64,000 nt of DNA. Origin: Promethearchaeota archaeon (GTDB taxonomy: Archaea > Asgardarchaeota > Lokiarchaeia > Sigyniarchaeales > SOKP01). Below the pieces are notes generated by a model, which ran no database searches, had not been told where the DNA came from, and saw only the letters and a list, made by a program, of their open reading frames with translations. Shown here one piece after another: positions 16,752 through 29,472 of the stretch; the first letter of the stretch is position 1, and every line of letters begins with the position of its first letter. The translations under genes and the position numbers were made by a program. Location of the stretch: positions 32,001 to 96,000 of the forward strand of contig JBHLNF010000006.1 of the NCBI GenBank assembly GCA_048937405.1. The letters run 5' to 3'.

Positions 16752-17258
16752 TTAATTGATTTTTTTATTATTACCTTCGTTATCATTGTTTTTGTTAATT
16801 TCAGGAATAATAATTGAATGATCTTCTTTAATCCGGTCTAAAACAATTTCTGTTTTAACTTCTTCAACTCCCGGTAAATTACGGAGTTTTTCTATTAGAC
16901 CCATCGAATCTTGATGATTCAGACATTTTGCCATAATGAATAAAGGATATTCACCTGTTACTACATACGCATATTTAACTTTATCCATGTTTTCAATCTC
17001 AGTTTTAACGTCTTCTAAGGGATATGATGCGTTTACTCTTAATGAAGCCATAACCATTTCTCGATACCCTAATTCTCTACAATCTATCAATGCAACGTAT
17101 TTTTTAATATAGTCTTTCTCAAGGCGTTGTAACCGGCTTCTTACAGCCGTTTGACTCTTGCCAACTACATAAGATATCTCTTTTATAGTAATTTTAGCAT
17201 CATTTTGGAGAAGTTCCAAGATTTGTCTATCAATATCATTTATATTTTCTATTGTCAT
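16752..17258 (-). CDS. Lrp/AsnC family transcriptional regulator, divergent from the Hdr operon
   Basis: IDRQILELLQNDAK..IKEIS..VG.S..AV.SRLQRL HTH; C-terminal RAM domain (VTGEY). Confidence 0.92.
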   Translation of the reverse strand: MTIENINDIDRQILELLQNDAKITIKEISYVVGKSQTAVRSRLQRLEKDYIKKYVALIDCRELGYREMVMASLRVNASYPLEDVKTEIENMDKVKYAYVVTGEYPLFIMAKCLNHQDSMGLIEKLRNLPGVEEVKTEIVLDRIKEDHSIIIPEINKNNDNEGNNKKIN

Positions 17259-17509
17259 TTAAAAAATCATCCTTTCTTAAAATTTTAAACTAAATTCATC
17301 TATATTAAATAATAATTAGTTTTTAAAGTATATAATTTTTTTCACTATTTTAAGTTTAATCATTAGATTTATTCGCTATTTTTACCCAAGATTTATAGAA
17401 AAAAAAACTATAATTTATATATGAATTTGCATTTTTAACTAATAAAGTAATTACATATAGATTATTATAATAGTAAAAAAATAAAAAATAGAAAAAAAAA
17501 CTAAAAAAA

Positions 17510-17743
17510 GTGAAAAAAATGGCAGTTCATACATTTAATTATACTGGCTTAAAATGTCCAATGCCAGTTTTGAAAACCAAAAAGGAATTAAGAAAATTAG
17601 CTTCTGGAGATGTTCTAGAGGTAATTGCTGATGATGTCGGTGCTAAAAAGGATATACCGGCGTTAGTTAATAAATCCGGCGATGAATTAATAGAACTTAG
17701 AGAAGATAATGGAAATATTACATTTGTAATAAAAAAAGCATAA
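17510..17743 (+). CDS. tusA: Sulfur carrier TusA family
   Basis: GLKCPMPV motif, 77 aa, DD..A..DI. Confidence 0.9.
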   Translation: MKKMAVHTFNYTGLKCPMPVLKTKKELRKLASGDVLEVIADDVGAKKDIPALVNKSGDELIELREDNGNITFVIKKA

Positions 17744-17772
17744 ACTTCAAAGATTAGAGGTTCTGGAAGACT

Positions 17773-18141
17773 ATGAAAACTTATACTTTCTTTGTAAGCA
17801 CTGAGCCTTATAAATTTGAAGCTGTAGATTCATTGATTGAAATAGCAAAAGCTGTGTTAAAAAAAGGTAATTCAATTCGAGGGATATTTTTCTTTGGAAC
17901 AGGCGTATATAATCTTAAAAGGGATATAAGCTGTGGTACTTCAATTAGAAATATTCCAAGTAAAATCCAACAATTTTGTAGAGAAAATAACATTCCTGTA
18001 GCTGGCTGTAGCACTTGGGTTAGTATTACAGGATTAAAAGAACCAGAATTTATTGAAGGAGCGACTGAAGAAGGTTTAGGTGACTTTTCAAATTGGGTTA
18101 TTGAATCAAATAAATTAATTGTATTTGGAGCTGGAGGTTAA
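17773..18141 (+). CDS. dsrE: DsrE/TusD-like sulfurtransferase
   Basis: EPY, GIFFFGTGVYN, conserved Cys (GCSTW..ITG), GLGDF. Confidence 0.8.
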   Translation: MKTYTFFVSTEPYKFEAVDSLIEIAKAVLKKGNSIRGIFFFGTGVYNLKRDISCGTSIRNIPSKIQQFCRENNIPVAGCSTWVSITGLKEPEFIEGATEEGLGDFSNWVIESNKLIVFGAGG

Positions 18142-18146
18142 GAAAG

Positions 18147-18515
18147 ATGGTGGAATCAATTTTAATAATAAGTGATCAATCACCAGTTGGAAAGAATTTT
18201 GCTGCAGAAGCAATTAGGATTGGCTCTGGATTTGTAGCACTGGGAGAATATATAGACTGTAAAATTGTTTTTATGGGAGATGCTGTTTATTTATTCAATA
18301 AAAATGCTTCTCCTGAAACTGTGGGAATGGATTCAATTGATGAAATTCTTGAGATGGCAGAATTATCTGATTTAGAAGTGTATATAATTGAATCAGCTCT
18401 GAATAACGCAGGCTTGACAAAAGAGGATTTAGTAGAATATGAGAGTATGAAGATTATTACTATTGATGATCTAGTAGATCTAATAGAAAATGCGGATGTA
18501 TGTTTTAGATATTAG
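18147..18515 (+). CDS. dsrF: DsrF/TusC-like protein
   Basis: SPVG...EAIR, VFMGDAVY; lies between dsrE and dsrH. Confidence 0.75.
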   Translation: MVESILIISDQSPVGKNFAAEAIRIGSGFVALGEYIDCKIVFMGDAVYLFNKNASPETVGMDSIDEILEMAELSDLEVYIIESALNNAGLTKEDLVEYESMKIITIDDLVDLIENADVCFRY

Positions 18516-18530
18516 GAGGAGGAAAATAAT

Positions 18531-18872
18531 ATGACAGATAATCTTGATATAATTTATTTATTCGGATATAGTAGTAATACTGGAAGGCAATTAGAACGAT
18601 TATTTCCTATTATACATTTACAAAAAGTTAAAAATTCTAAAATTGGCTTAGTTTTAATTCATGATGGAGTAATTGGAATTACAACTAAAGGGAGTATTCC
18701 TAAAGAAATGGAAGACTTTCTTGATTTAAATATTGCTATGTTTGCAATGATTCCTGATTTGAAAGCACGTGGTATATCACTTGATTATATCAGTGAGAAA
18801 ATTAAACTCATCGAATATGACGATCTTATAGATATTTTGGATATAACACCAAAAATAGTATCTTGGATGTAA
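18531..18872 (+). CDS. dsrH: DsrH/TusB-like protein
   Basis: LIHDGV, DLKARGI, I.YDDLID, C-terminal SW. Confidence 0.8.
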   Translation: MTDNLDIIYLFGYSSNTGRQLERLFPIIHLQKVKNSKIGLVLIHDGVIGITTKGSIPKEMEDFLDLNIAMFAMIPDLKARGISLDYISEKIKLIEYDDLIDILDITPKIVSWM

Positions 18873-18969
18873 TGAAATTAAAAAAAAATATAAAAAAAAA
18901 TTTTTTGCAAAAATTCTGACTAATGTCAGTTTAATAATAGTTTTAAACAAATAAATAAAAAAAAAAAAG

Positions 18970-19401
18970 GTGGTATATATGGCTGAAAATGAAACAATAA
19001 ATTTTATTGTAAAGGATAAATCATTCGAAAAGTTTGCAATGATGATGATCCTTGGTACTACAGGTGATGCCATGGACACAAAAATGAATTTTTTCTTTAC
19101 TTTTTGGGGTTTAAATCTTTTAAAAAAGAAATTTAAACCAAAAGTTGCAGGGATGCCTACCCCTATGAAAGGGATGGCAGCGAAAATGTTTAGGAAGAGA
19201 ATGAAAAAATTTGGAATTGAAGATCCATGGGCAATGATTAAAGATGCAGTTGACAGCGGAAATATGAAATTATATCCATGTCAAATGACAATGGATTTAA
19301 TGGGGATTAAGAGAGAAGATTTATTTGATTGGGTTGAAGATCCTGTGGGTGCTGCCTCATTTTTAGAAATGAGTAATGGTGGAAGAATAGTTTCATTATA
19401 A
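18970..19401 (+). CDS. DsrE2-like (DrsE_2) sulfurtransferase
   Basis: FFFTFWGL, PCQMTMDLMGI, VGAASFL. Confidence 0.85.
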   Translation: MVYMAENETINFIVKDKSFEKFAMMMILGTTGDAMDTKMNFFFTFWGLNLLKKKFKPKVAGMPTPMKGMAAKMFRKRMKKFGIEDPWAMIKDAVDSGNMKLYPCQMTMDLMGIKREDLFDWVEDPVGAASFLEMSNGGRIVSL

Positions 19402-19447
19402 AATTAATTTTTTTTTTAATTTTTTATATAAAAAAAGGTGATGATAA

Positions 19448-20005
19448 ATGTCTGATGTAGAAGAACAGACAAGAGAATATAAAACAGACGAAGATTTTGA
19501 TCAAGATTTTTTTAAAAATATTGAAAGGAGGTCAAACATTTGGCAGTGCATCCAATGTGGTACATGCACAGCAAGTTGTGAAAGTGGAAGATGGACTGCT
19601 TTGAAGACTCGTTCAATTATTAGAAAAGTTGTATTAGGAGATTTATCGGTATTAAAAGATCCAGATATTTGGTTATGTACTACATGTTATCAATGTTATG
19701 AGCGATGTCCACGAGATGTAAGACCTACAGATGTAATTATGGAATTGAGAAATTATGCTACTAAATTAGGCAATATTTCTCCCAATCATAGAGCCGTTGT
19801 AGGATATTTGAAAAACTTTGGACATGCTGTACCGATAAATGATGAGGTAAGAAAACGAAGAATCGAATTAGGGTTAGAAGAATTACCCCCTACTGCGTTT
19901 AAATTTAAACAAGAGGGGGATGATAAAGATTTAAAAAATATTGAAGAACATATGTTTGATTTACCTCCAGTCAAGGAGGATAAAAAAGAAAAGGAGGAGA
20001 CATAA
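19448..20005 (+). CDS. hdrC: Heterodisulfide reductase subunit C
   Basis: CIQCGTCTASC and WLCTTCYQCYERCPR (2x 4Fe-4S); GHAVP. Confidence 0.92.
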   Translation: MSDVEEQTREYKTDEDFDQDFFKNIERRSNIWQCIQCGTCTASCESGRWTALKTRSIIRKVVLGDLSVLKDPDIWLCTTCYQCYERCPRDVRPTDVIMELRNYATKLGNISPNHRAVVGYLKNFGHAVPINDEVRKRRIELGLEELPPTAFKFKQEGDDKDLKNIEEHMFDLPPVKEDKKEKEET

Positions 20006-20007
20006 AG

Positions 20008-20925
20008 ATGGTCAAAGAAAATACGTTTGCGTTCTTTTTAGGGTGTATAATGCCTAATCGATATCCTGCTATCGAGAAATCAACGAAATTTGTCATGGAA
20101 AAATTAGGATATGAACTCTTAGATATGGAAAGAGCAACTTGTTGTCCCGCTCCAGGCGTTTTCCGTTCTTTCAATAAAATTGATTGGATGGTAGTTGCTG
20201 CGCGAAATTTATGTATTGCAGAAAAATTAGATGCTGATATTTTAACAGTTTGTAATGGATGCTTTGGTACACTCCAAGAAGTAAATAAACATCTTAAACA
20301 AAACGAAGAACATCGTGAAATGGTCAATAAAAAACTTAAATTATTAGGGGACTATGAATTTAAAGGTACGATTAATGTACGTCATATAGCTGAAGTTTTA
20401 GGATATGAAATTGGACCATGGGGGATTGAAGATCATATAATAAGGAAAGTAAATATTAAGGCTGCTATTCATTATGGATGCCATTTCTTAAAGCCGACAA
20501 GAATTAGAGAAATTGAAAGTTCTGAAGGTCCTACGATAATTGAAGATTTTGTTGAAGTATTAGGTGTCGAATCTGTAAGATTTAATGAACAGCTTACTTG
20601 TTGCGGTGCAGGTGGTGGAGTAAAAGCTTATGATGGTAATTCAAGTATGACAATTTTTGGTGAAAAAATGAAGAATATTGATGAAGTTAAACCAGATATA
20701 ATATTAGATATCTGTCCATTTTGTCATTTACAATTTGAGACAGGACAAGATTATTTAAATAAAAATAAAGCTTGTAATTATGATTATCCTGTAATTCATA
20801 TCTCCCAGCTTGTTGCCTATTGTATGGGAATGGACCAAGAATTTATTGGTCTTCAATATCAGTTAATGGGACGAGAGTTTATTTTTGGGGGAGAACAATT
20901 AAATAAAGAAGAGGAGATTGCTTAA
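20008..20925 (+). CDS. hdrB: Heterodisulfide reductase subunit B
   Basis: Two CCG domains: FLGC...TCCPAPG...VCNGC and HYGCH...CCGAGGG...CPFCHLQF. Confidence 0.93.
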   Translation: MVKENTFAFFLGCIMPNRYPAIEKSTKFVMEKLGYELLDMERATCCPAPGVFRSFNKIDWMVVAARNLCIAEKLDADILTVCNGCFGTLQEVNKHLKQNEEHREMVNKKLKLLGDYEFKGTINVRHIAEVLGYEIGPWGIEDHIIRKVNIKAAIHYGCHFLKPTRIREIESSEGPTIIEDFVEVLGVESVRFNEQLTCCGAGGGVKAYDGNSSMTIFGEKMKNIDEVKPDIILDICPFCHLQFETGQDYLNKNKACNYDYPVIHISQLVAYCMGMDQEFIGLQYQLMGREFIFGGEQLNKEEEIA

Positions 20926-22953
20926 ATGACAGTGAAAGAAGAAAAAGTAGTTGAAGTAAATAAATTAGGTGATAAAGATAAACAAGAAGAACCAAGAATA
21001 GGTGTTTTTGTATGTCATTGTGGTCATAATATCGCAGGAACAGTTGATGTTGCTAAAGTAGCAGAATATGCTAAAGATTTACCTAATGTAGTTAAAGCTG
21101 AACATTATATGTTTATGTGTTCAAAACCAGGAGTTCAAATGCTTAAAGATTCTATTGAAGAATTAGATGTTAATAGAACAGTGGTGGCTTCATGTTCAAA
21201 AAACCAACATGGAAGGACTTTTGCTAAAGCAATAGAGGAAATGGGGCTCAATAAACATCGACATCAACAAGTTAATATTAGAGAATTTAATAGTTGGGTG
21301 CATCAGAAAGAGAAAGATAAAGCAACCGAAAAAGCTAAGAAGTTAGTAGAAGCTGGAGTAAATAGAGCAAGAAAGCTAGAGGATGTCGAGACACGGAGAA
21401 TTCCCACGACTAAAGCTGCATTAGTGATTGGTGCTGGTATTGCAGGACTTCGTGCTTCATATGATTTAGCGGAGTTAGGAATTCCAGTTTATTTAGTAGA
21501 AAAATTATCTACAATTGGAGGACATATGACACAATTAAATAAAACATTCCCAACTTTGGAATGTCCACAATGTAGTATTTCTCCATTAACTAATGGTGTA
21601 GCTAATCATCCGTTAATAGAACTCTATACTAATGCTCAAATTAAGAGTGTGGAGGGTTCAATGGGTAATTTTGAAGTTGAGGTTGAAATAAAGCCAAGAT
21701 ATGTTAAAAATAATTGTACATCTTGCGGTGAGTGTGCCTTACATTGTCCTGTGGAAGTACCTAGTGAATGGGATAGTGGAATGTCAATGAGAAACGCAAT
21801 TTATAAAGCGTATCCACAAGCAATTCCAGCTACATATGTGAGAGACAAAAATAGTTGTATTGAATGTAATACATGTATTAATGTTTGTCCCGTACAAGCT
21901 ATAGATTTTTCAATGAAAGCAGAAATTAAAACATTTAAAGTTGGTTCTATTGTTGTTGCCGCTGGCTATGATGAATATGATCCTTCAGAAATTGAAGCGT
22001 ACCATTATAGTCAAGAAGGATATGAAGATGTGATAACACAACTCAAATTGGAAAGGATGTTAGCTCCGGGTTCTCTTACCAATAGTCAAGTATTACGTCC
22101 TTCTGATGGTAAAATCCCTAAAAGTATCGTGATGATACAATGTGTAGGAAGTAGAAATGATCAAGTAGGGAATCAATATTGTACAGGAGTTTGTTGCAAA
22201 TTTGCAATTAAAAATGCTCGAATTGTAAAAGAAATGTATCCAGATTCAGATATTACAATTTGCTATATTGATGTGAGGACTCCCGGTTTAAACTTTGAAG
22301 AATTATACAAATCAGCACAGGAAGTAGGAGTAAGATTTATTAGAGGACGTCCATCAGAGATTCTTAGAGACCCTGTTTCTGGAGAATTAAGAGTAATTGT
22401 TGAAGATACTTTAAGTCAAACTCCTTTAAAATTAAAAGCAGATATGGTGGTATTATCAGCAGCAATGGTACCTCCTGAAGGTATCGGTCCGTTAGGATCA
22501 AAATTACAAGTTCTACGCTCAAAAGAAGGATTTTTAAAAGAATTTCACATTAAAATGAATCCAACTTTAAGCAGTAAAGGAGGAATATTTATAGCGGGGG
22601 CAATTCAAGGTCCTAAAGATATTTCTGAATCAGTTGCTCAAGCGGGTAATGCTGCAGCTATAGCTGCTGCTCCATTGGTAAAGGGCTATATTGAAAAAGA
22701 GATGTTAATTCCTTCAGTAGATTTTGATTTATGTGTTAGATGTGGTCTATGTAAAACTGTATGCGCTCCAGCAGCGATACAAATTAATGATGATGGAACA
22801 CCTGTGGTAAATGAGGTTGCTTGTAAATCATGTGGTATGTGTATGCCTGTCTGTCCTACGGGAGCAATTCAATTATTAAATTTTAGTGATGAACAATTAT
22901 TAGATGAAATAATCGCAATTTCAGGAGGAGGTGTTATATGCGAAAATGAGTGA
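20926..22953 (+). CDS. hdrA: Heterodisulfide reductase subunit A (flavin-bifurcating type, Cys form)
   Basis: GVFVCHCG, GAGIAG, KTFPTLEC, inserted ferredoxin, QCVGSR...YCTGVCC, GPKDI, C-terminal ferredoxin. Confidence 0.95.
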   Translation: MTVKEEKVVEVNKLGDKDKQEEPRIGVFVCHCGHNIAGTVDVAKVAEYAKDLPNVVKAEHYMFMCSKPGVQMLKDSIEELDVNRTVVASCSKNQHGRTFAKAIEEMGLNKHRHQQVNIREFNSWVHQKEKDKATEKAKKLVEAGVNRARKLEDVETRRIPTTKAALVIGAGIAGLRASYDLAELGIPVYLVEKLSTIGGHMTQLNKTFPTLECPQCSISPLTNGVANHPLIELYTNAQIKSVEGSMGNFEVEVEIKPRYVKNNCTSCGECALHCPVEVPSEWDSGMSMRNAIYKAYPQAIPATYVRDKNSCIECNTCINVCPVQAIDFSMKAEIKTFKVGSIVVAAGYDEYDPSEIEAYHYSQEGYEDVITQLKLERMLAPGSLTNSQVLRPSDGKIPKSIVMIQCVGSRNDQVGNQYCTGVCCKFAIKNARIVKEMYPDSDITICYIDVRTPGLNFEELYKSAQEVGVRFIRGRPSEILRDPVSGELRVIVEDTLSQTPLKLKADMVVLSAAMVPPEGIGPLGSKLQVLRSKEGFLKEFHIKMNPTLSSKGGIFIAGAIQGPKDISESVAQAGNAAAIAAAPLVKGYIEKEMLIPSVDFDLCVRCGLCKTVCAPAAIQINDDGTPVVNEVACKSCGMCMPVCPTGAIQLLNFSDEQLLDEIIAISGGGVICENE

Positions 22954-23398
22954 ATGTGAATATATTGAACCAGAAGTTCTTGAAAAGATGGAAAATATTG
23001 TAGTTTTTATGTGTAATGAATGCGGACAAGGTTCAGCAAACACAGCTGGAGTTGCCCGGATGGCATATAATCCTGCAATTCGAATTGTTCGAGTACAATG
23101 TACTGGTCAAGTCGGTCCTATTCAGATTATGGATGCCTTGAACAACGGGGCAGATGCTGTTGCCTGTGTTGGCTGTTGTTTGGGAGCATGTCATTTCTTT
23201 AATGGGAATATTTTATCAATGCATAGAATAAAATTAATGAAAAAGTTATTTAAAGAATTAGGTTATAGCGATCAGTTTGTTAATCAATATACTTCTCGAG
23301 CTGCTGAAGGAGAAACTGCAGTTGGAGATTTTGATGATATTGTAGAACGATTAGCAACTGCAATAAGAGAGGAGGAGACGTTCAAAGATGGATGTTAG
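22946..23398 (+). CDS. mvhD: MvhD-type [2Fe-2S] subunit
   Basis: FMCNEC, VRVQCTG, GADAV..GC..G.CHF..GN; ATG at 22946 overlapping the hdrA end is preferred over the track's GTG at 22931. Confidence 0.85.
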   Translation: MSECEYIEPEVLEKMENIVVFMCNECGQGSANTAGVARMAYNPAIRIVRVQCTGQVGPIQIMDALNNGADAVACVGCCLGACHFFNGNILSMHRIKLMKKLFKELGYSDQFVNQYTSRAAEGETAVGDFDDIVERLATAIREEETFKDGC

Positions 23399-24629
23399 AG
23401 TATTTCAGTTTAATGGATGTAATAAATGCTTCAATGAGACGATTCTTTTAGAAGGAGAATCAATGTATGAGGTGGAGTTTATAAACAATCCGAAAGAATG
23501 GAAGGAGAAAAAAACAGATGTATCAATTATTACTGGATTTTTACTTCCTGAAAACAAGGATGCATTAAATAAAATTAAAAAAAATTCTGAAAAGGTGATT
23601 GCTTATGGAAATTGTGCTACTACAGGAGGGATTTTTGCTCTTGCAAATCAAAAAGGTCATGATGTATCTCCATTAAATAATATCATTGAAAATCCAATTA
23701 ATATTAATGGTTGTTTAGGGGAAATTGAAGAATTAAAATTAGAAATTGAAGATAATGATCTCCCAAAATTAAAAAATCTCTGTATTGTATGCGGAAGACG
23801 AAAAACTTGTGATTACTTAGATGATGTAAAACGACAAATTGAATTAGAAGATACTGAGACATGTTTTAATGACCAAGGATATCTTTGTAATGGTTTTATC
23901 TCCAAAGAATGTAAAGAACGATGTATTGACTATAATGCTCCCTGTAGAGGTTGCAAACCAATTGTTGAACGTTCTGGGGTCAGAATGTTAGGCATGTTTG
24001 GAACTCTTATGGGAAATATTGAAGTTGCGACTGAGCATTCTGAAAAGGGAGCAACTGATAAATTAGCAGACAAGGATGATGATGTGACTGCAGGTCTACC
24101 CGATATAGTAGGTAATTTCTTTAGATTTACTTTGCCAACATCAGGATTGCCAAAAGGTCGAATTCCTTCAAATGGAAACATATTAGAAGATGTTTTTATA
24201 GGAAGACTTATTGAAGAATTACCTCTAATTTCTGGATTATTAGGGGGGGATCATTCAATCTCATTAACATTAAAGATAATTGAAACCTATGAAGACGCTA
24301 ATAATATTGAAGTAAGTGAAAAAACAAAAAATTATCGAAATCAACTATTAAAGTTGGAAATTGAACTTCAAAAGGCAATTCAGAATAAAGATTCAGAAAA
24401 ATATAAGAAAATCACTGATGAAATTCGTAAGATTGCTGGAAATATGAATTTATCTAATCTGTCCTTTGGAGGATTTCGGTCACAAATTGATGATAATGAT
24501 AATTTTGAAGAATATCAAACCCACCCTTTTGAAGTGGTTGAAGGAACATATAAGAATGGTTCAGTTGAATTTACAATTGATCCAATTGGTATTGTAAAAA
24601 AAATTAAAATTAAAGAGGGAAATGCATGA
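23388..24629 (+). CDS. MvhG-like hydrogenase small-subunit homolog with a C-terminal extension resembling a Cys-less large-subunit fragment
   Basis: GCNKC, GNCATTGGI, GC and C..C...CF...G.LC.G...C...C....PCRGC cluster motifs; then FIGRLIEELPLISGLLGGDH. Confidence 0.75.
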   Translation: MDVRVFQFNGCNKCFNETILLEGESMYEVEFINNPKEWKEKKTDVSIITGFLLPENKDALNKIKKNSEKVIAYGNCATTGGIFALANQKGHDVSPLNNIIENPININGCLGEIEELKLEIEDNDLPKLKNLCIVCGRRKTCDYLDDVKRQIELEDTETCFNDQGYLCNGFISKECKERCIDYNAPCRGCKPIVERSGVRMLGMFGTLMGNIEVATEHSEKGATDKLADKDDDVTAGLPDIVGNFFRFTLPTSGLPKGRIPSNGNILEDVFIGRLIEELPLISGLLGGDHSISLTLKIIETYEDANNIEVSEKTKNYRNQLLKLEIELQKAIQNKDSEKYKKITDEIRKIAGNMNLSNLSFGGFRSQIDDNDNFEEYQTHPFEVVEGTYKNGSVEFTIDPIGIVKKIKIKEGNA

Positions 24630-27094
24630 GTTTTGAATTATTAAGAGAAGAGATTGTAGATGCTGGTCTATGTCAAGGATGTGGTTTATGTGCTGGTTCA
24701 TGTAAACATATTGAAATGGATGTAAGACGTCCAACTTTAAAAGACTATTGTATATTGGAAAGAGGAGGCCAAGATTGTGGAAAGTGCTATCAAAATTGCC
24801 CTCAAATAATCCAGAAGAAATTTAAAGAAAAACAACCTCTTGCAATTTATTCACTAAGAAGCAAAGATCCAGAAATTATAGATAAAGCATCAAGTGGGGG
24901 TTTTGTTACTTCTTTTACTAAAGAATTGCTAGAAAATGACACGCTTAAAGAAGTTGTTATGGTCCAAGAAGAAGATGAGAAACCAGTTGCTGAGATAGTT
25001 TCTGATCCTAAAGAAGTTATTAAGAAAGCAGGTGTTATTTATGGTAGATCTGGTGTGCTACAAAAATTAGTAGAACTCACTGGTGAAACATTTGACCCAA
25101 TCGGTATTGTCGGTGTACCATGTGAAATACGTGGAGCTGCTGAACTTGAAGAAGAAATGAATCGAAATATTTTAAAAATTGGATTGTTTTGTAGTTCTCA
25201 AATGAGAACTAAGCAAACAGATAAAGGTTTAGTATGTTCTCCTTGTTGTAATGGATGCCCTTCTGGTGTTAATGCTCAAGGATACATTTCATTAATACGT
25301 CAAGGACAATATCAAGATGCCGTAGATTTGATTAGAGAAAGCAATCCACTTCCATCCATATGTGGGAGAATTTGTACTAATGAGTGTGAACATGGTTGTA
25401 CTTTAATAGGAGACGACCATCCTGTTGCAATCCGTGAGTTAAAGAAATTTGTTACTGAATGGGAAATTGAAAGAGCAAAGAATACATCAAAAACAACAGC
25501 TAAATTAAATAGAGATGCGAAAAAAGTAGCGATTATCGGATCTGGACCAGCTGGATTAACTGCAGCGTATTTTTTAAGAAGAATGGGATATGCACCCACT
25601 ATCTTTGAGAAGACAGATCAAACAGGTGGGATGCTAAGATTTGGTGTACCACAATTTAGGTTACCTAATTATGTACTAGATTATGATGTAGGCAGAATCA
25701 TAGATTCCGGTGTCGAAGTAAAACTTAACAAACCATTAGGTCCTGAGATGACTATTGAAGATTTGAAAAATGAAGGATTTGAGGCTATATTTATTGCCAC
25801 TGGACAATATAAACCTCGTACCTTACACTTAGAAGGTGAAGATTTACCAAATGTGCATGTAGCAATTCATTTTCTAATGGATAGAAAATATCGATACTGG
25901 GAAAATAAAGAAGAATTTAAAGGTAAAACTTTAGGCATAATTGGAGGAGGTGCTGTTGCAGTTGATGTTGCTCAAACGGCTCTTAGGTTAGGAGCTAAAA
26001 AGGTTCATCTTGTTGATATTATGTCAGAAGAACAACTCGAATTGGTCTTAAGAGACATTCCTGAAACTGAAATGGAGTTTATAAATTATCACTTCGCGAC
26101 TTCCACTTCCAAAATTACTCAGGATAAAGATGAAAAATTAGTTTTAAATTGTTATAATATTGAATGGGGTACTCCTGATAAGAATGGAAGAAGACCGTTA
26201 AATAAAATTGAAGGATCAGATTATGAAATTCTTGTTGATTCTATTGTAATAGCGGTTGGTCAAGCAGTAGATTTTGAGCAAATAGATGCAGCAACAAATA
26301 ATGAATTAGAAAAAGAACGAAATAGAATTAAAGTAAATGAAATAACATTTGAAACTAATATCCCTGGGGTTTTTGCTGGCGGAGATATTATCAGTAATTC
26401 TAAAGCTGTGGCTATTGCTGCTATAGCTCACGGAAAGGAAGCTGCATTTTCAATAGACAGATATCTAAAGGGAGAAAACTTGATAGATGGAAGATTTAGG
26501 CGAGAGAATTCTTTTTTCACGGGGCCTAAGAAACCCCCAAAAGATTATTCATTAAAACCAGAAACATTAGACCAAGCCACTGAAGAAAAAAGTTGGAGTT
26601 TTGAGGAGATTGATAAAATATTCAATGAGGATATGGCTTTACAAGAAGCGCGAAGATGTCTAAGTTGTAATCATTTCTGTACTCATTGTCAAGATTTCCC
26701 TGCAATATATTCAGACCTTACTGCGGGTGAAGTAGGATCAAAAGAGGGCTTTACTACAGTGGTAGTTTGGACGGAGCGTGGCAAAGCGCTTATTGAAAAA
26801 GCAATTAAAAAAGGTTTATTCGAGCAAGGAAAAGTTGATGAGAAAGAATTGAAAAATGCAATTAATCTAAAATCAAAACGTGAATTAATGAACTTTGAAA
26901 AACCCCCTAGACAACAGGTTTTAGATTATATATCACTGCAAGGTCCTAGCACTATTACAGACATTTCAAAACAAACAGGTCTTGAACCGAGGAAAGCCAG
27001 ATATGAAGCTCTCCGATTAGTTCAATTAATGGAATTAGAAATGAAGACTGAACCTGAAATGGAGGAACCAATATTTTCTATTATATGTGAATAA
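24626..27094 (+). CDS. FrhB-family protein with an inserted GltD/NfnB-type FAD/NAD(P) oxidoreductase module and a C-terminal wHTH
   Basis: CQGCGLCAGSC, SSGGFVT, VGVPCE, IGLFC | CCNGCP...NPLPSICGRIC...GSGPAG...GGGAVAVD...FAGGD...EARRCLSC | CTHCQDF...GS..GFTTVVV.TERG | helix-turn-helix tail. Confidence 0.85.
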   Translation: MSFELLREEIVDAGLCQGCGLCAGSCKHIEMDVRRPTLKDYCILERGGQDCGKCYQNCPQIIQKKFKEKQPLAIYSLRSKDPEIIDKASSGGFVTSFTKELLENDTLKEVVMVQEEDEKPVAEIVSDPKEVIKKAGVIYGRSGVLQKLVELTGETFDPIGIVGVPCEIRGAAELEEEMNRNILKIGLFCSSQMRTKQTDKGLVCSPCCNGCPSGVNAQGYISLIRQGQYQDAVDLIRESNPLPSICGRICTNECEHGCTLIGDDHPVAIRELKKFVTEWEIERAKNTSKTTAKLNRDAKKVAIIGSGPAGLTAAYFLRRMGYAPTIFEKTDQTGGMLRFGVPQFRLPNYVLDYDVGRIIDSGVEVKLNKPLGPEMTIEDLKNEGFEAIFIATGQYKPRTLHLEGEDLPNVHVAIHFLMDRKYRYWENKEEFKGKTLGIIGGGAVAVDVAQTALRLGAKKVHLVDIMSEEQLELVLRDIPETEMEFINYHFATSTSKITQDKDEKLVLNCYNIEWGTPDKNGRRPLNKIEGSDYEILVDSIVIAVGQAVDFEQIDAATNNELEKERNRIKVNEITFETNIPGVFAGGDIISNSKAVAIAAIAHGKEAAFSIDRYLKGENLIDGRFRRENSFFTGPKKPPKDYSLKPETLDQATEEKSWSFEEIDKIFNEDMALQEARRCLSCNHFCTHCQDFPAIYSDLTAGEVGSKEGFTTVVVWTERGKALIEKAIKKGLFEQGKVDEKELKNAINLKSKRELMNFEKPPRQQVLDYISLQGPSTITDISKQTGLEPRKARYEALRLVQLMELEMKTEPEMEEPIFSIICE

Positions 27095-27128
27095 AATTAA
27101 AACTAATAAATATTAAGAGGTAAAGAAT

Positions 27129-27365
27129 ATGAATTATGATATGGAATTAAACGTCTGTGGGTCAGTATGTCCTGTTCCTGCTTTAAAAACTAAAAAACAA
27201 CTCATGAAAATGAGACCAGGTACAGTTTTAAAAGTTATTACCGATTACAAACCCGCAAGTGAATCTGTTCCACGAGATTTAGCAAAAACAAAACATAAAC
27301 ATTTAGGAACAGAATTCATTGATGATGATGAAATCTGGTATATGTATTTTGAAGCAGTAAAGTAA
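27129..27365 (+). CDS. tusA: Second TusA family sulfur carrier
   Basis: GSVCPVPA motif, LKVITDY, 78 aa. Confidence 0.85.
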   Translation: MNYDMELNVCGSVCPVPALKTKKQLMKMRPGTVLKVITDYKPASESVPRDLAKTKHKHLGTEFIDDDEIWYMYFEAVK

Positions 27366-27480: not shown

Positions 27481-29472
27481 TTGTACTCACAAACTTATAA
27501 TCCAAATTTGATGAATATGTCTTATTCAGAATCTAAGGAGCTAGCTCAAGCAAGAAAATTTATTGATAAATGTAAGTTTGATGAAGCGGAACATTTGATT
27601 AAGAATTTCGAAGAAAAGGGAGGACAAATTCTTCATGATACAGTTTTATGTCAATACCTCAAGTGTGAGCTCTTATTTTGGAGAGGATTACATAAGGATG
27701 TTATAAAACTTGCCGAACAAGCATATAAAGAAAGTTTAGGATTAGAAAAAAACTTCCTATCGGTTAATATCTTACTAATAATGGCGTATTCTTTATTAAT
27801 GCTTAATAAATCGGAAGAATCTTACGAGATAGTTAAGCAAGGAGAGAAATTGCTAAAAGCTTTAACCCAAGAATTACCAATAGAATACAAACAAAGAGAA
27901 GCTTATATAGCTTTTCTTAAAGGATGGTATTACACACTAAAAAATGAGGAAGAGAGGGCTATAAAGCAGTTTGAGCTCAGCATATCATTGCGAGAAGAAA
28001 TTAGCGCTGATTTGGAAATTATCCATTCCCTTATTGGAATTGCCTATTTATTTACTTTTCTAAAGGGTGATTATAAACGTGCCTTAAAATATTTAGAGCG
28101 TGGTATAATTATTGCCGAGGAAAGTGGCAATAGATGGTGTATTGGATATCTTACTATGCGTATAGCAAGGATACATATGTTAAAGGGGGAATTGGATCAA
28201 AGTATTATACTTTATGATCGGAGCTTGACAATTTTCAATGATCTTGACAATAAATTTATGGTAGCTTGGATTCTTAGCCTTCTGGGGGATGTTAATAGAC
28301 AGAAAGGAGAATTAAATCGTGCATTGGAAAACATTGAACAAGGTTTGGCATTAGACCGCCAATTAGGATTATTACAAACACTAGCGATAGATCACTATAA
28401 TTTCATTCAGGTTTTAGTTGATATAGGTGATATAAAACGAGCACAGCAAGCTCTTCATGATTTAGAGCAATTGAACAATCAATCAAAAGACAAAATAGTT
28501 AATTTCTTGTATCTTCTTGATAAGGCTATAGTATTGAAAACTAGTCCTCGAGCTCGCAATCGGGTTGAAGCGGAAGAAATATTTAAGCAAGTTCTCGAAG
28601 ATGAGGATTCCAATTTTTTAATTAAGTTAAGAGCACTAACTAACTTATGTGAATTACTTTTAACTGAGTTACGGGTAACTAATGACTTAGAAGTGTTTGA
28701 TGAGTTAACTCAATGTATTACTCGATTATTAGCTATTGCCAAGAAATCACACTCATACTCAATACTGTGCGAGACTTACCTTTTTCAAGCTAAATTAGCA
28801 TTAATTTCATTGAACTTGAAAGAAGCTCGAAGATTATTAACTCAAGGACAGAAAATTACTGAAAAATATGGTCTTATTCTATTATCCCGGAAAATTTCAC
28901 ATGAACATGATGAATTACTTAAACAATTAGAAATATGGGAGAAATTAAAAGAATCAAAAGCACCCTTAGCTGAACGTATGGATTTGTCACGCTTAAATGA
29001 GCAAATGGAGCAAATGATACGAAAACGAGCGATAAACATTCCCGAACTTTCAGATGAAAAACCTGTGCTTCTTTTTATTATATCAGAGGGCGGAATACCA
29101 TTTTTCTCTCAAAAATTTATAAAGGATCAAACTTTTGAAGACTATCTTTTTGGAGGTTTCTTTACTGCAGTTAATACTTTTATTAGAGAACAGTTCTCTG
29201 AAGGGCTTGATCGGGCGATTTTTGGTGAACATACGCTCCTTATGAATTCTGTATCCCCCTTTTTGATATGTTACGTATATAAGGGTCAATCCTATTCTGC
29301 TCAACAAAGGATTAGAACTTTTATAGATAAAATACAGAATGATGAACTAGTATGGCAAACCTTTAAAAAATTTTACCAACTGAACCAAGAAATTCAATTA
29401 AAAGACATTCCCTCTTTAGAATCTCTAATAAAAGAGATATTTATTGATAAAAATATTCAATTAATAAGTTAA
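27481..29472 (+). CDS. Tetratricopeptide repeat protein with C-terminal longin-like domain
   Basis: Multiple TPRs (GELDQSIILYDRSL; GELNRALENIEQGL); tail LLFIISEGGIPFFS...LFGGFFTAVNTF. Confidence 0.8.
   Translation: MYSQTYNPNLMNMSYSESKELAQARKFIDKCKFDEAEHLIKNFEEKGGQILHDTVLCQYLKCELLFWRGLHKDVIKLAEQAYKESLGLEKNFLSVNILLIMAYSLLMLNKSEESYEIVKQGEKLLKALTQELPIEYKQREAYIAFLKGWYYTLKNEEERAIKQFELSISLREEISADLEIIHSLIGIAYLFTFLKGDYKRALKYLERGIIIAEESGNRWCIGYLTMRIARIHMLKGELDQSIILYDRSLTIFNDLDNKFMVAWILSLLGDVNRQKGELNRALENIEQGLALDRQLGLLQTLAIDHYNFIQVLVDIGDIKRAQQALHDLEQLNNQSKDKIVNFLYLLDKAIVLKTSPRARNRVEAEEIFKQVLEDEDSNFLIKLRALTNLCELLLTELRVTNDLEVFDELTQCITRLLAIAKKSHSYSILCETYLFQAKLALISLNLKEARRLLTQGQKITEKYGLILLSRKISHEHDELLKQLEIWEKLKESKAPLAERMDLSRLNEQMEQMIRKRAINIPELSDEKPVLLFIISEGGIPFFSQKFIKDQTFEDYLFGGFFTAVNTFIREQFSEGLDRAIFGEHTLLMNSVSPFLICYVYKGQSYSAQQRIRTFIDKIQNDELVWQTFKKFYQLNQEIQLKDIPSLESLIKEIFIDKNIQLIS

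Follow-up and report, generated by a model that had tools for sequence, protein, structure and literature searches.

Anatomy and conservation of an Asgard operon joining sulfur carriers, HdrABC-MvhD and an FrhB-family flavoprotein with a vestigial hydrogenase subunit

We analysed a stretch of 64,000 nucleotides (hereafter the window) from the Promethearchaeota archaeon assembly GCA_048937405.1 (contig JBHLNF010000006.1, positions 32,001 to 96,000 of the forward strand), which carries an operon that links sulfur carriers of the TusA and DsrE families to the heterodisulfide reductase subunits HdrCBA, the connector MvhD, a hydrogenase small subunit of unusual architecture (here MvhG*) and a composite flavoprotein (here FrhB::GltD). 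The source genome comprises 4.47 Mb in 29 contigs with a completeness rating of 100%; the window lies on contig C19 and has a GC content of about 29%. Related loci bear the label Promethearchaeota, the Asgard group that includes Lokiarchaeia. Domains were named with Pfam and NCBIfam models, and conservation was assessed in orthologue alignments of 13 to 27 loci per protein.

Genes and features of the operon

Twelve open reading frames, all on the plus strand, occupy positions 17510-27365 in the order TusA-DsrE-DsrF-DsrH-DsrE2-HdrC-HdrB-HdrA-MvhD-MvhG*-FrhB::GltD-TusA; the largest overlap between neighbours is 23 bp and the widest gap 97 bp. The genes are preceded by a divergent Lrp gene, located on the opposite strand 251 bp upstream of the first TusA gene (TusA1). 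The preliminary description of twelve co-oriented, close-packed genes between two TusA genes and divergent from an Lrp/AsnC gene was borne out gene by gene; Pfam and NCBIfam analysis of the cluster proteins likewise agreed with its statement that LbpA, DsrAB, DsrC, Mcr and an intact hydrogenase large subunit are missing from the cluster. The features are as follows:

16752-17258, minus strand: Lrp/AsnC-type regulator (HTH_AsnC-type and AsnC_trans_reg domains, Pfam)
17259-17509, no strand: divergent intergenic region, AT-rich, with conserved TATA-like blocks (alignment of five orthologous regions)
17510-17743, plus strand: TusA1 sulfur carrier with the CPMP cysteine (Pfam TusA, 87 bits)
17773-18141, plus strand: DsrE/TusD-like subunit with a cysteine in GC(S/T)TW (Pfam DsrE)
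18147-18515, plus strand: DsrF/TusC-like subunit (Pfam DsrE; TIGR03010 37 bits, under the cut-off)
18531-18872, plus strand: DsrH/TusB-like subunit (Pfam DsrH, 42 bits)
18970-19401, plus strand: DsrE2-like carrier of the COG2210 type with the KLYPC cysteine (Pfam DrsE_2, 88 bits)
19448-20005, plus strand: HdrC, two [4Fe-4S] clusters (TIGR03290, 176 bits, cut-off 160)
20008-20925, plus strand: HdrB, the S-S-reducing subunit, with two CCG domains for noncubane clusters (TIGR03288, about 368 bits, cut-off 345)
20926-22953, plus strand: HdrA, five-domain type I bifurcating flavoprotein in the cysteine form (E 1e-191 to 5odc_A)
22931-23398, plus strand: MvhD, [2Fe-2S] connector (Pfam FlpD, 111 bits)
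23388-24173, plus strand: MvhG-like small-subunit part of MvhG*, residues 1-262 (Oxidored_q6 and VhuG matches; structure match to 5odc_E)
24174-24629, plus strand: residues 263-413 of MvhG*, a remnant core of a [NiFe] large subunit joined to MvhG (fold match to large subunits)
24626-27094, plus strand: FrhB::GltD, a flavoprotein of the FrhB family that has a 2x[4Fe-4S] domain at its N-terminus and an NAD(P)H insert of the GltD/NfnB type (Pfam)
27129-27365, plus strand: second TusA carrier, TusA2 (Pfam TusA, 66 bits)

MvhG* is a protein of 413 residues identified by Pfam and NCBIfam as Oxidored_q6/VhuG-like, in which residues 1-190 include twelve invariant cysteines, for three Fe-S clusters. 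We built an AlphaFold2 model from 21 orthologues, whose confident domains cover residues 1-128 and 256-410. Its small-subunit part superimposes on MvhG (5odc_E) with a Z-score of 15.4 and an rmsd (root mean square deviation) of 2.3 (Foldseek E 3e-08), and residues 263-413 superimpose on FrhA (6qgt_A) with a Z-score of 13.7 and an rmsd of 2.4 over 149 aligned residues (chain residues 40-404). Large subunits of the [NiFeSe], actinobacterial, HycE, NuoD-type and MbsL kinds give Z-scores of 11-13 with the same region, and a sequence profile of the C-terminal half matches FrhA residues 44-108 (E 0.007) and, more weakly, the same region in three other group 3 large subunits. It is the fold match together with the profile match to PDB sequences that argues for homology of this relic to large subunits; a Foldseek search of MvhG* against the PDB gave small-subunit matches only, and profile-profile comparison of the C-terminal part with the genome's own MvhA reached only 14.7% probability. 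The Ni-binding CGxC motif has become GG in the relic, and a search for a conserved cysteine in the orthologue alignments of this half found none. The relic family is small, with only 28 representative clusters among 1.84 billion proteins, mostly fragments of the same protein.

Since the large-subunit relic is free of cysteines, the cluster has no working hydrogenase and the complex is H2-independent; the two intact [NiFe] large subunits of the genome are encoded elsewhere, each adjoining its own small subunit. The cluster keeps its electron wire despite the dead hydrogenase. H2-independence, already suggested in the preliminary description, thus holds: MvhG is fused to its own cysteine-free relic and is followed by the gene for an FrhB-family flavoprotein, in parallel to the Elp-Hdr complex discussed below. 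We consider the architecture of the operon and its H2-independence well supported.

FrhB::GltD (822 residues) has the domain order FrhB_N, Fer4_20, Pyr_redox_2, FrhB_C, with the insert at about residues 190-660. The flanks match the N-terminal, F420H2-oxidising half of Fsr (Fsr-N), FrhB and ElpB (8rvu_E), and for the insert the matches are NfnA/NfnB/GltD. Cysteines of the ferredoxin, FrhB and GltD parts vary little or not at all among orthologues; the last ~60 residues (window 26900-27094) form a tail without a Pfam match. The GltD insert is present in 34 and absent from nine of 43 distinct loci. The nine are L167 (a distant contig), two close relatives (L011 and L049) and every Thor-like locus. 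On this basis we regard the FrhB core as the input common to all, with the NAD(P)H module added in Lokiarchaeia. At L011:11239-14132 and in L049 the insert-less FrhB occurs with an extra HdrC-like/HdrB-like pair 3' of TusA2, which points to an NAD(P)H module that was lost secondarily or exchanged. The genome contains two genes for the F420 ligase CofE.

The Hdr subunits retain their cofactor ligands: eight cysteines of HdrC are invariant, ten CCG-motif cysteines of HdrB are kept, and every cluster cysteine of HdrA is invariant among orthologues, as are C28, C31, C57, C82, C83 and C87 of MvhD. HdrA has 675 residues in five domains (top model HdrA2, 745 bits) and matches the sHdrA structure 6tjr only partially (135 bits). 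Its LERM and AIKN segments align exactly with E356 and K409 of 5odc_A (HdrA of M. thermolithotrophicus), which flank the bifurcating flavin adenine dinucleotide (FAD). Both are named as key residues at the bifurcating FAD in PMC12054007. The CCPAPG motif of HdrB and the Glu/Lys-bearing LERM and AIKN segments of HdrA, pointed out in the earlier account, are therefore confirmed by reading of the motifs and by alignment to 5odc_A.

Four of the six carrier-type proteins retain the carrier cysteine, namely TusA1 (CPMP, no variation in 13 orthologues), TusA2 (CP(V/Y)P, invariant in 24), DsrE (GC(S/T)TW, 14 of 14) and DsrE2 (KLYPC, invariant); a conserved cysteine was also sought in the orthologue alignments of DsrF and DsrH, and none was found. 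The DsrEFH/TusBCD layout is seen as adjacent Pfam DsrE, DsrE and DsrH matches with the active cysteine in the E/D subunit. With the search patterns used, the DsrE2 subtype was found only in Promethearchaeota genomes. Alignment indicates that the true start of TusA1 may be the conserved ATG at 17519. Two further carrier loci lie outside the window. A second DsrE-DsrF-DsrH triad (C10:73725-74829), 38-50% identical to that of the cluster, is isolated, with neither a TusA nor an Hdr gene nearby. At C19:169164-169854 another TusA-like gene is located directly upstream of a PP-loop ATPase gene, and these two are likelier to be a tRNA-thiolation pair than are the cluster carriers. PF03054 (MnmA) was dropped as a marker of tRNA thiolation, as it matches generic PP-loop ATPases in all control genomes.

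The intergenic region 17259-17509 contains candidate promoters and a candidate Lrp operator. At five related loci (L036, L037, L048, L060 and L072) the region upstream of TusA1 holds two to four consecutive Lrp-like matches, which represent either Lrp paralogues in tandem or fragments; the window has one. Downstream of TusA2, a tetratricopeptide repeat (TPR) protein is encoded at 27481-29472. It is found in several close relatives (30-56% identity) and was not seen at MK-D1-type or Thor-like loci, and it is probably outside the system.

Conservation of the operon in Asgard archaea

A scan with MvhG* identified 11 loci with identical gene order, including the divergent Lrp gene. In 399 genomes from the phylum, the families with full-length MvhG* are that of the window, two others of its order and one that belongs to a different class. 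The relic was not found in a sample of 401 genomes drawn from the phylum of a Methanosarcinaceae genome, nor in three methanogen genomes at E below 1e-4. In all, the block is syntenic in about 45 Lokiarchaeial species. Three gene orders can be distinguished. The first, in the window's own family and in Sigynarchaeum, is that of the window, with Lrp divergent. In the second, found in P. syntrophicum MK-D1, L. ossiferum and Harpocratesius, the order is TusA-DsrE-DsrF-(DsrH)-DsrE2-Lrp-HdrCBA-MvhD-MvhG*-FrhB::GltD-TusA, with Lrp co-oriented and placed inside the block between DsrE2 and HdrC. The third, in Thor-like genomes, reads HdrCBA-MvhD-MvhG*-FrhB-TusA-DsrE-DsrF-DsrH ... TusA, with the relay downstream, no DsrE2, and a weak divergent Lrp homologue upstream of HdrC. 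In addition, the GC-rich (54%) metagenome contig L167 carries DsrE-DsrE-HdrCBA-MvhD-MvhG*-FrhB-TusA.

Carriers are present at all 44 Asgard loci of the cluster HdrB clade with sufficient flanking sequence, and 34 methanogen HdrBC loci lack them. At 39 of 43 distinct loci, L167 among them, the downstream distance from FrhB to TusA2 is no more than 400 bp. From the synteny that survives these rearrangements we conclude that the constant core is HdrCBA-MvhD-MvhG*-FrhB-TusA2; DsrE2, like the GltD insert, is a Lokiarchaeial addition. Loss of tus/dsr-hdr synteny in relatives, which the preliminary description named as a refutation, does not refute it, since the linkage survives in three gene orders; this recurrence also rules out a chance arrangement.

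One could still imagine that an Hdr module merely landed in or beside a sulfur-relay operon and shares no substrate with it. A scan with DsrE2 over 46 Lokiarchaeial loci with room downstream found HdrC next after DsrE2 in 39, while in the other seven the Hdr module is absent and Lrp-TusA1-DsrE2 is kept, beside unrelated transporters and enzymes; in one of the seven (L149) DsrEFH is kept as well. These relays without Hdr, and the differing DsrE2 and DsrEFH content among lineages, are what simple adjacency would lead one to expect. It is at odds with a linkage kept across about 45 species in three gene orders, with the overlap or near-abutment of genes within the Hdr/input block and the spacing of only 34 bp between FrhB::GltD and TusA2, and with the decay of carrier genes where the Hdr module has been lost: at the Hdr-less locus L148:7247-8690, DsrE, DsrH and TusA2 persist only as short fragments between intact TusA1 and DsrE2. 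This decay after loss of the module fits coupling of relay and reductase, and we consider mere adjacency very unlikely. L148 also has a second, intact DsrHFE set head-on downstream.

Several loci deviate in copy number. L026:1713-6890 has a tandem second FrhB::GltD 3' of TusA2, and L005:13750-16564 has an extra TusA2 copy with a C-terminal FrhB fragment, which indicates that the 3' end of the operon undergoes local duplications. In MK-D1, a paralogous HdrCBA-MvhD set (L017:2-2636, DSAG12_01135-01138), divergently transcribed, adjoins TusA1.

The block is transcribed in cultured MK-D1. In the rows concerned of Supplementary Table 3 of Imachi et al. (2020), the orthologues DSAG12_01139-01151 all have 182-348 reads per kilobase per million mapped reads, which is within the range of neighbouring genes in the table excerpts covered. 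The Hdr part of the cluster is already tabulated in that work, where the entries for the tus/dsr genes bear automatic tRNA-thiouridine names only. Its main text takes Mvh-Hdr as the one hydrogenase and reads the Asgard version as confurcating. Reduction of TusA/DsrE-bound persulfides by Hdr has been proposed in a 2025 preprint on Nerearchaeum marumarumayae (bioRxiv 10.1101/2025.07.22.663070). Our literature search found no paper describing the anatomy or distribution of the cluster.

Proposed reaction and candidate substrates

DsrC/TusE, the Mcr alpha subunit, ComA and NIR_SIR sulfite reductase were not found in the whole, 100% complete genome, so that the usual DsrEFH acceptors and the known HdrB-type substrates are not evident. 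We propose that the operon encodes an H2-independent FrhB(::GltD)-MvhG*-MvhD-HdrABC complex in which electrons are divided, one share going to ferredoxin and the other to an S-S species that the carriers hold or deliver, a reading to which we give an even chance. We infer that the complex assembles, and likewise what donates its electrons, in which direction it runs and what its substrate is. Electrons would enter at the FrhB flavoprotein, with F420H2 as the likely donor at the FrhB core and, in Lokiarchaeia, NAD(P)H as a second entry through the inserted GltD module. Next would come the three Fe-S clusters of MvhG*, in which the nickel-free relic would be no more than a scaffold, and from there the electrons would reach the FAD of HdrA by way of the MvhD [2Fe-2S] cluster. 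There one branch would lead to ferredoxin and the other to the noncubane clusters of HdrBC, which would reduce an S-S bond. In a cell without Mcr, ComA and DsrC, this substrate may be supplied by, or made of, the co-encoded cysteine carriers, with TusA2 as the first candidate and TusA1, DsrEFH and DsrE2 as helpers. A carrier persulfide, polysulfide, trisulfide or mixed carrier disulfide could thus take the place of CoM-S-S-CoB (the heterodisulfide of coenzymes M and B) or of DsrC. The complex may be bifurcating or confurcating, and Lrp would govern transcription.

A more far-reaching form of this proposal is that sulfur bound to TusA2 and the DsrE-family helpers is the physiological "heterodisulfide" of Asgard Hdr, and that the operon encodes a flavin-bifurcating, H2-independent reductase of sulfane sulfur or protein disulfides. 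We offer this form tentatively, with more doubt than confidence. Several observations weigh against the carrier-coupled reading as a whole. The DsrEFH proteins score 37-45 bits where the NCBIfam equivalog cut-offs are 49-94 (DsrE reaches 45 bits with TIGR03012, under its cut-off of 89). DsrC/TusE, the usual DsrEFH acceptor, is among the proteins not found in the genome, and a search for longer or fused relatives of TusA2 found no fusion to a redox subunit. The seven DsrE2 loci without Hdr imply that part of the relay works without the cluster Hdr. The contact residues of HdrB described below are a further point, and energetics is another. The textbook potentials are about -270 mV for S0/H2S, about -140 mV for CoM-S-S-CoB, -320 mV for NAD(P)H, about -350 mV for F420 and below -420 mV for ferredoxin, so that NAD(P)H is unable to reduce both ferredoxin and S0 or a persulfide at about -270 mV. 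Therefore, with NAD(P)H as the donor, bifurcation calls for an S-S couple whose potential is well above -270 mV, and a persulfide couple would favour the confurcating direction.

A different substrate is suggested by HdrB itself. The complex could reduce a small-molecule heterodisulfide, similar to CoM-S-S-CoB or formed by another pair of low-molecular-weight thiols, with the carriers serving something else, e.g. sulfur insertion during thiol synthesis. HdrB and HdrC both pass the curated CoB-CoM reductase models, and HdrB is 58-60% identical to methanogen HdrB (E 2e-90 to 5odc_B) and only 33-43% identical to its six paralogues from the same genome. In the HdrB tree, the phylogenetic check raised by the preliminary description, the Asgard cluster clade (support 100, with Thor-like and Lokiarchaeial sequences split within it) joins methanogen HdrB at a value of 89 in the Shimodaira-Hasegawa-like approximate likelihood ratio test (SH-aLRT), apart from the paralogues. 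According to PMC13261682, in structure 5ODR CoM and CoB are contacted by the backbone of Gly46 and Gly198 and by Arg14, Arg201, Arg240 and Phe233. R14, G46, G198 and F233 are invariant in all 68 Asgard cluster sequences, the position of R201 is K in 61, R in five and L in two, and that of R240 is variable even in methanogens; three of the kept residues sit within cluster-binding motifs, which makes them only weakly diagnostic of the substrate. The same paper reports that methanogen Hdr tolerates altered head groups. On the other hand, ComA and Mcr, the markers of CoM synthesis and CoM-S-S-CoB use that the search covered, are missing from the 100% complete genome, linkage to the carriers persists in three gene orders with TusA2 almost invariant beside FrhB, and the methanogen HdrBC loci have no carriers. 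On balance, we regard a small-molecule heterodisulfide as unlikely.

The regulator brings up another explanation, namely that the relay is Lrp-controlled biosynthetic sulfur trafficking with Hdr in its service, as a reductase of S0 or polysulfide for assimilation or as a confurcating enzyme. In the confurcating version, the products from reduced ferredoxin and sulfide or a thiol would be NAD(P)H or F420H2 and a carrier persulfide, so that sulfane sulfur would be made without quinones. Lrp/AsnC proteins are usually amino-acid responsive, the Lrp gene stays with the relay even at Hdr-less loci, the genome has neither sulfite reductase nor YeeE, and confurcation with a persulfide couple is favourable by the potentials given above. 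A confurcating Asgard Mvh-Hdr is, moreover, the reading given by Imachi et al. (2020). However, for biosynthesis a distinct TusA-DsrE-like-cysteine desulfurase-scaffold set exists in MK-D1, and the genome analysed here has the other TusA-like gene beside the PP-loop ATPase; a bifurcating machine of 10 kb would be costly for assimilation, and a gene for a biosynthetic acceptor is absent from the cluster. We find this explanation quite unlikely.

Finally, the carriers might move selenium, and the complex might reduce a seleno-polysulfide to give selenide for the many selenoproteins of Lokiarchaeia. In five HdrA paralogues encoded outside the window, an in-frame TGA takes the place of the second CPQC cysteine (context DDCxI*):

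C19:133287-134717, minus strand: HdrA paralogue with in-frame TGA
C19:205514-206854, minus strand: HdrA paralogue with in-frame TGA
C28:494576-495925, plus strand: HdrA paralogue with in-frame TGA
C28:547046-548437, plus strand: HdrA paralogue with in-frame TGA
C13:234182-235528, plus strand: HdrA paralogue with in-frame TGA

By this codon they look like selenocysteine HdrA, whereas the cluster HdrA has cysteine at the position. TusA1 also matches the YedF models of selenium metabolism, and in M. maripaludis tusA/tusD transcripts go up at low selenium (PMC11097638). The YedF matches of TusA1 are nevertheless under their cut-offs and are outscored by the TusA model, selD and yedE are absent from the cluster, and YeeE/YedE (Sulf_transp) was not found in the genome. 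We consider the selenium idea speculative and scarcely credible.

Returning to the carrier-coupled complex, the sulfur-relay/Hdr interpretation of the preliminary description stands as far as the conserved operon, its H2-independence and its distinctness from sHdr-LbpA and Mvh-Hdr are concerned, with a protein persulfide or polysulfide as a candidate substrate. Asgard archaea have many Hdr complexes and make no methane. The question of the HdrB substrate underlies all models of their metabolism and bears on the hydrogen and sulfur syntrophy models of the origin of eukaryotes. The cysteine carriers of the operon itself are a concrete candidate. If carrier-bound sulfur is indeed the substrate, the operon would connect sulfur chemistry with the F420H2/NAD(P)H and ferredoxin pools of fermentation, and would do so in the nearest lineage to eukaryotes. 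The presence of the operon in the cultured strains MK-D1, where it is transcribed, and L. ossiferum makes this idea directly testable.

Relation to known Hdr systems

Among the closest known systems is MvhAGD-HdrABC of hydrogenotrophic methanogens (PDB 5ODC): HdrA, HdrB, HdrC, MvhD and the MvhG part are clear homologues, with every cofactor ligand retained, as are the Glu and Lys on either side of the FAD. The cluster differs in having no active hydrogenase, a cysteine-free relic of 150 residues being fused to MvhG instead, and in adding the FrhB(::GltD) flavoprotein and sulfur carriers, in an organism without Mcr and ComA. Compared with the group 3c [NiFe]-hydrogenases (Mvh/Vhu), the three-cluster small subunit and MvhD are present, but the two nickel-binding CxxC pairs are absent. 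In this respect the operon also departs from the Nerearchaeum marumarumayae preprint, whose passages present a model that uses a group 3c hydrogenase, in place of the dead hydrogenase arm and flavoprotein input seen here, and contain no gene-cluster analysis.

In its design the operon is similar to Elp-Hdr of M. marburgensis, where HdrABC is served, in place of Mvh, by a truncated inactive FdhA (ElpA), an F420H2 oxidase similar to FdhB/FrhB (ElpB) and the MvhD homologue ElpC (PMC12350162). In Elp-Hdr, as in FdhAB-MvhD-HdrABC (PDB 7BKB), a flavoprotein of the FrhB/FdhB family and an MvhD-type connector feed HdrABC without H2, and Elp-Hdr shares the dead relic of a catalytic subunit. Unlike in Elp-Hdr, the relic here is derived from a [NiFe] hydrogenase rather than FdhA and is fused to the small subunit, the Lokiarchaeial FrhB contains the GltD insert, and sulfur carriers are encoded, whereas Elp-Hdr has none and reduces CoM-S-S-CoB. 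The operon represents a second, independent case of a catalytic subunit turned into a scaffold while a flavoprotein takes over the input, and in its FrhB it also documents that an NAD(P)H module was gained as a unit.

Two further systems resemble the operon in their proposed substrates. In FlxABCD-HdrABC of sulfate reducers, an NAD(P)H-type input and an MvhD-like connector serve an Hdr for which DsrC is the proposed protein-borne S-S substrate. The input arms are not homologous (GltD, FrhB and MvhG* here, FlxABC there), and DsrC is missing from the genome analysed here; FlxABCD-HdrABC is named in Imachi et al. (2020). The sHdr-LbpA system with TusA/DsrE3 (PMC11094781, PMC6067878) also has TusA and DsrE-family carriers beside Hdr-like genes and carrier-bound sulfur as the proposed substrate. 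However, sHdrA is short and non-bifurcating, and sHdr needs LbpA and two HdrBC pairs and oxidises sulfur, while the cluster has no LbpA, a single canonical HdrBC pair, a five-domain HdrA, and MvhD with an input arm; the two GcvH genes of the genome are far off on contig C7. The models, the location of GcvH and the HdrA alignment all agree with the view that the operon is distinct from both methanogen Hdr-Mvh and sHdr-LbpA. Its kinship is with Mvh-Hdr by descent, with Elp-Hdr by design, and with sHdr and Flx-Hdr by proposed substrate, a combination partly anticipated in the literature.

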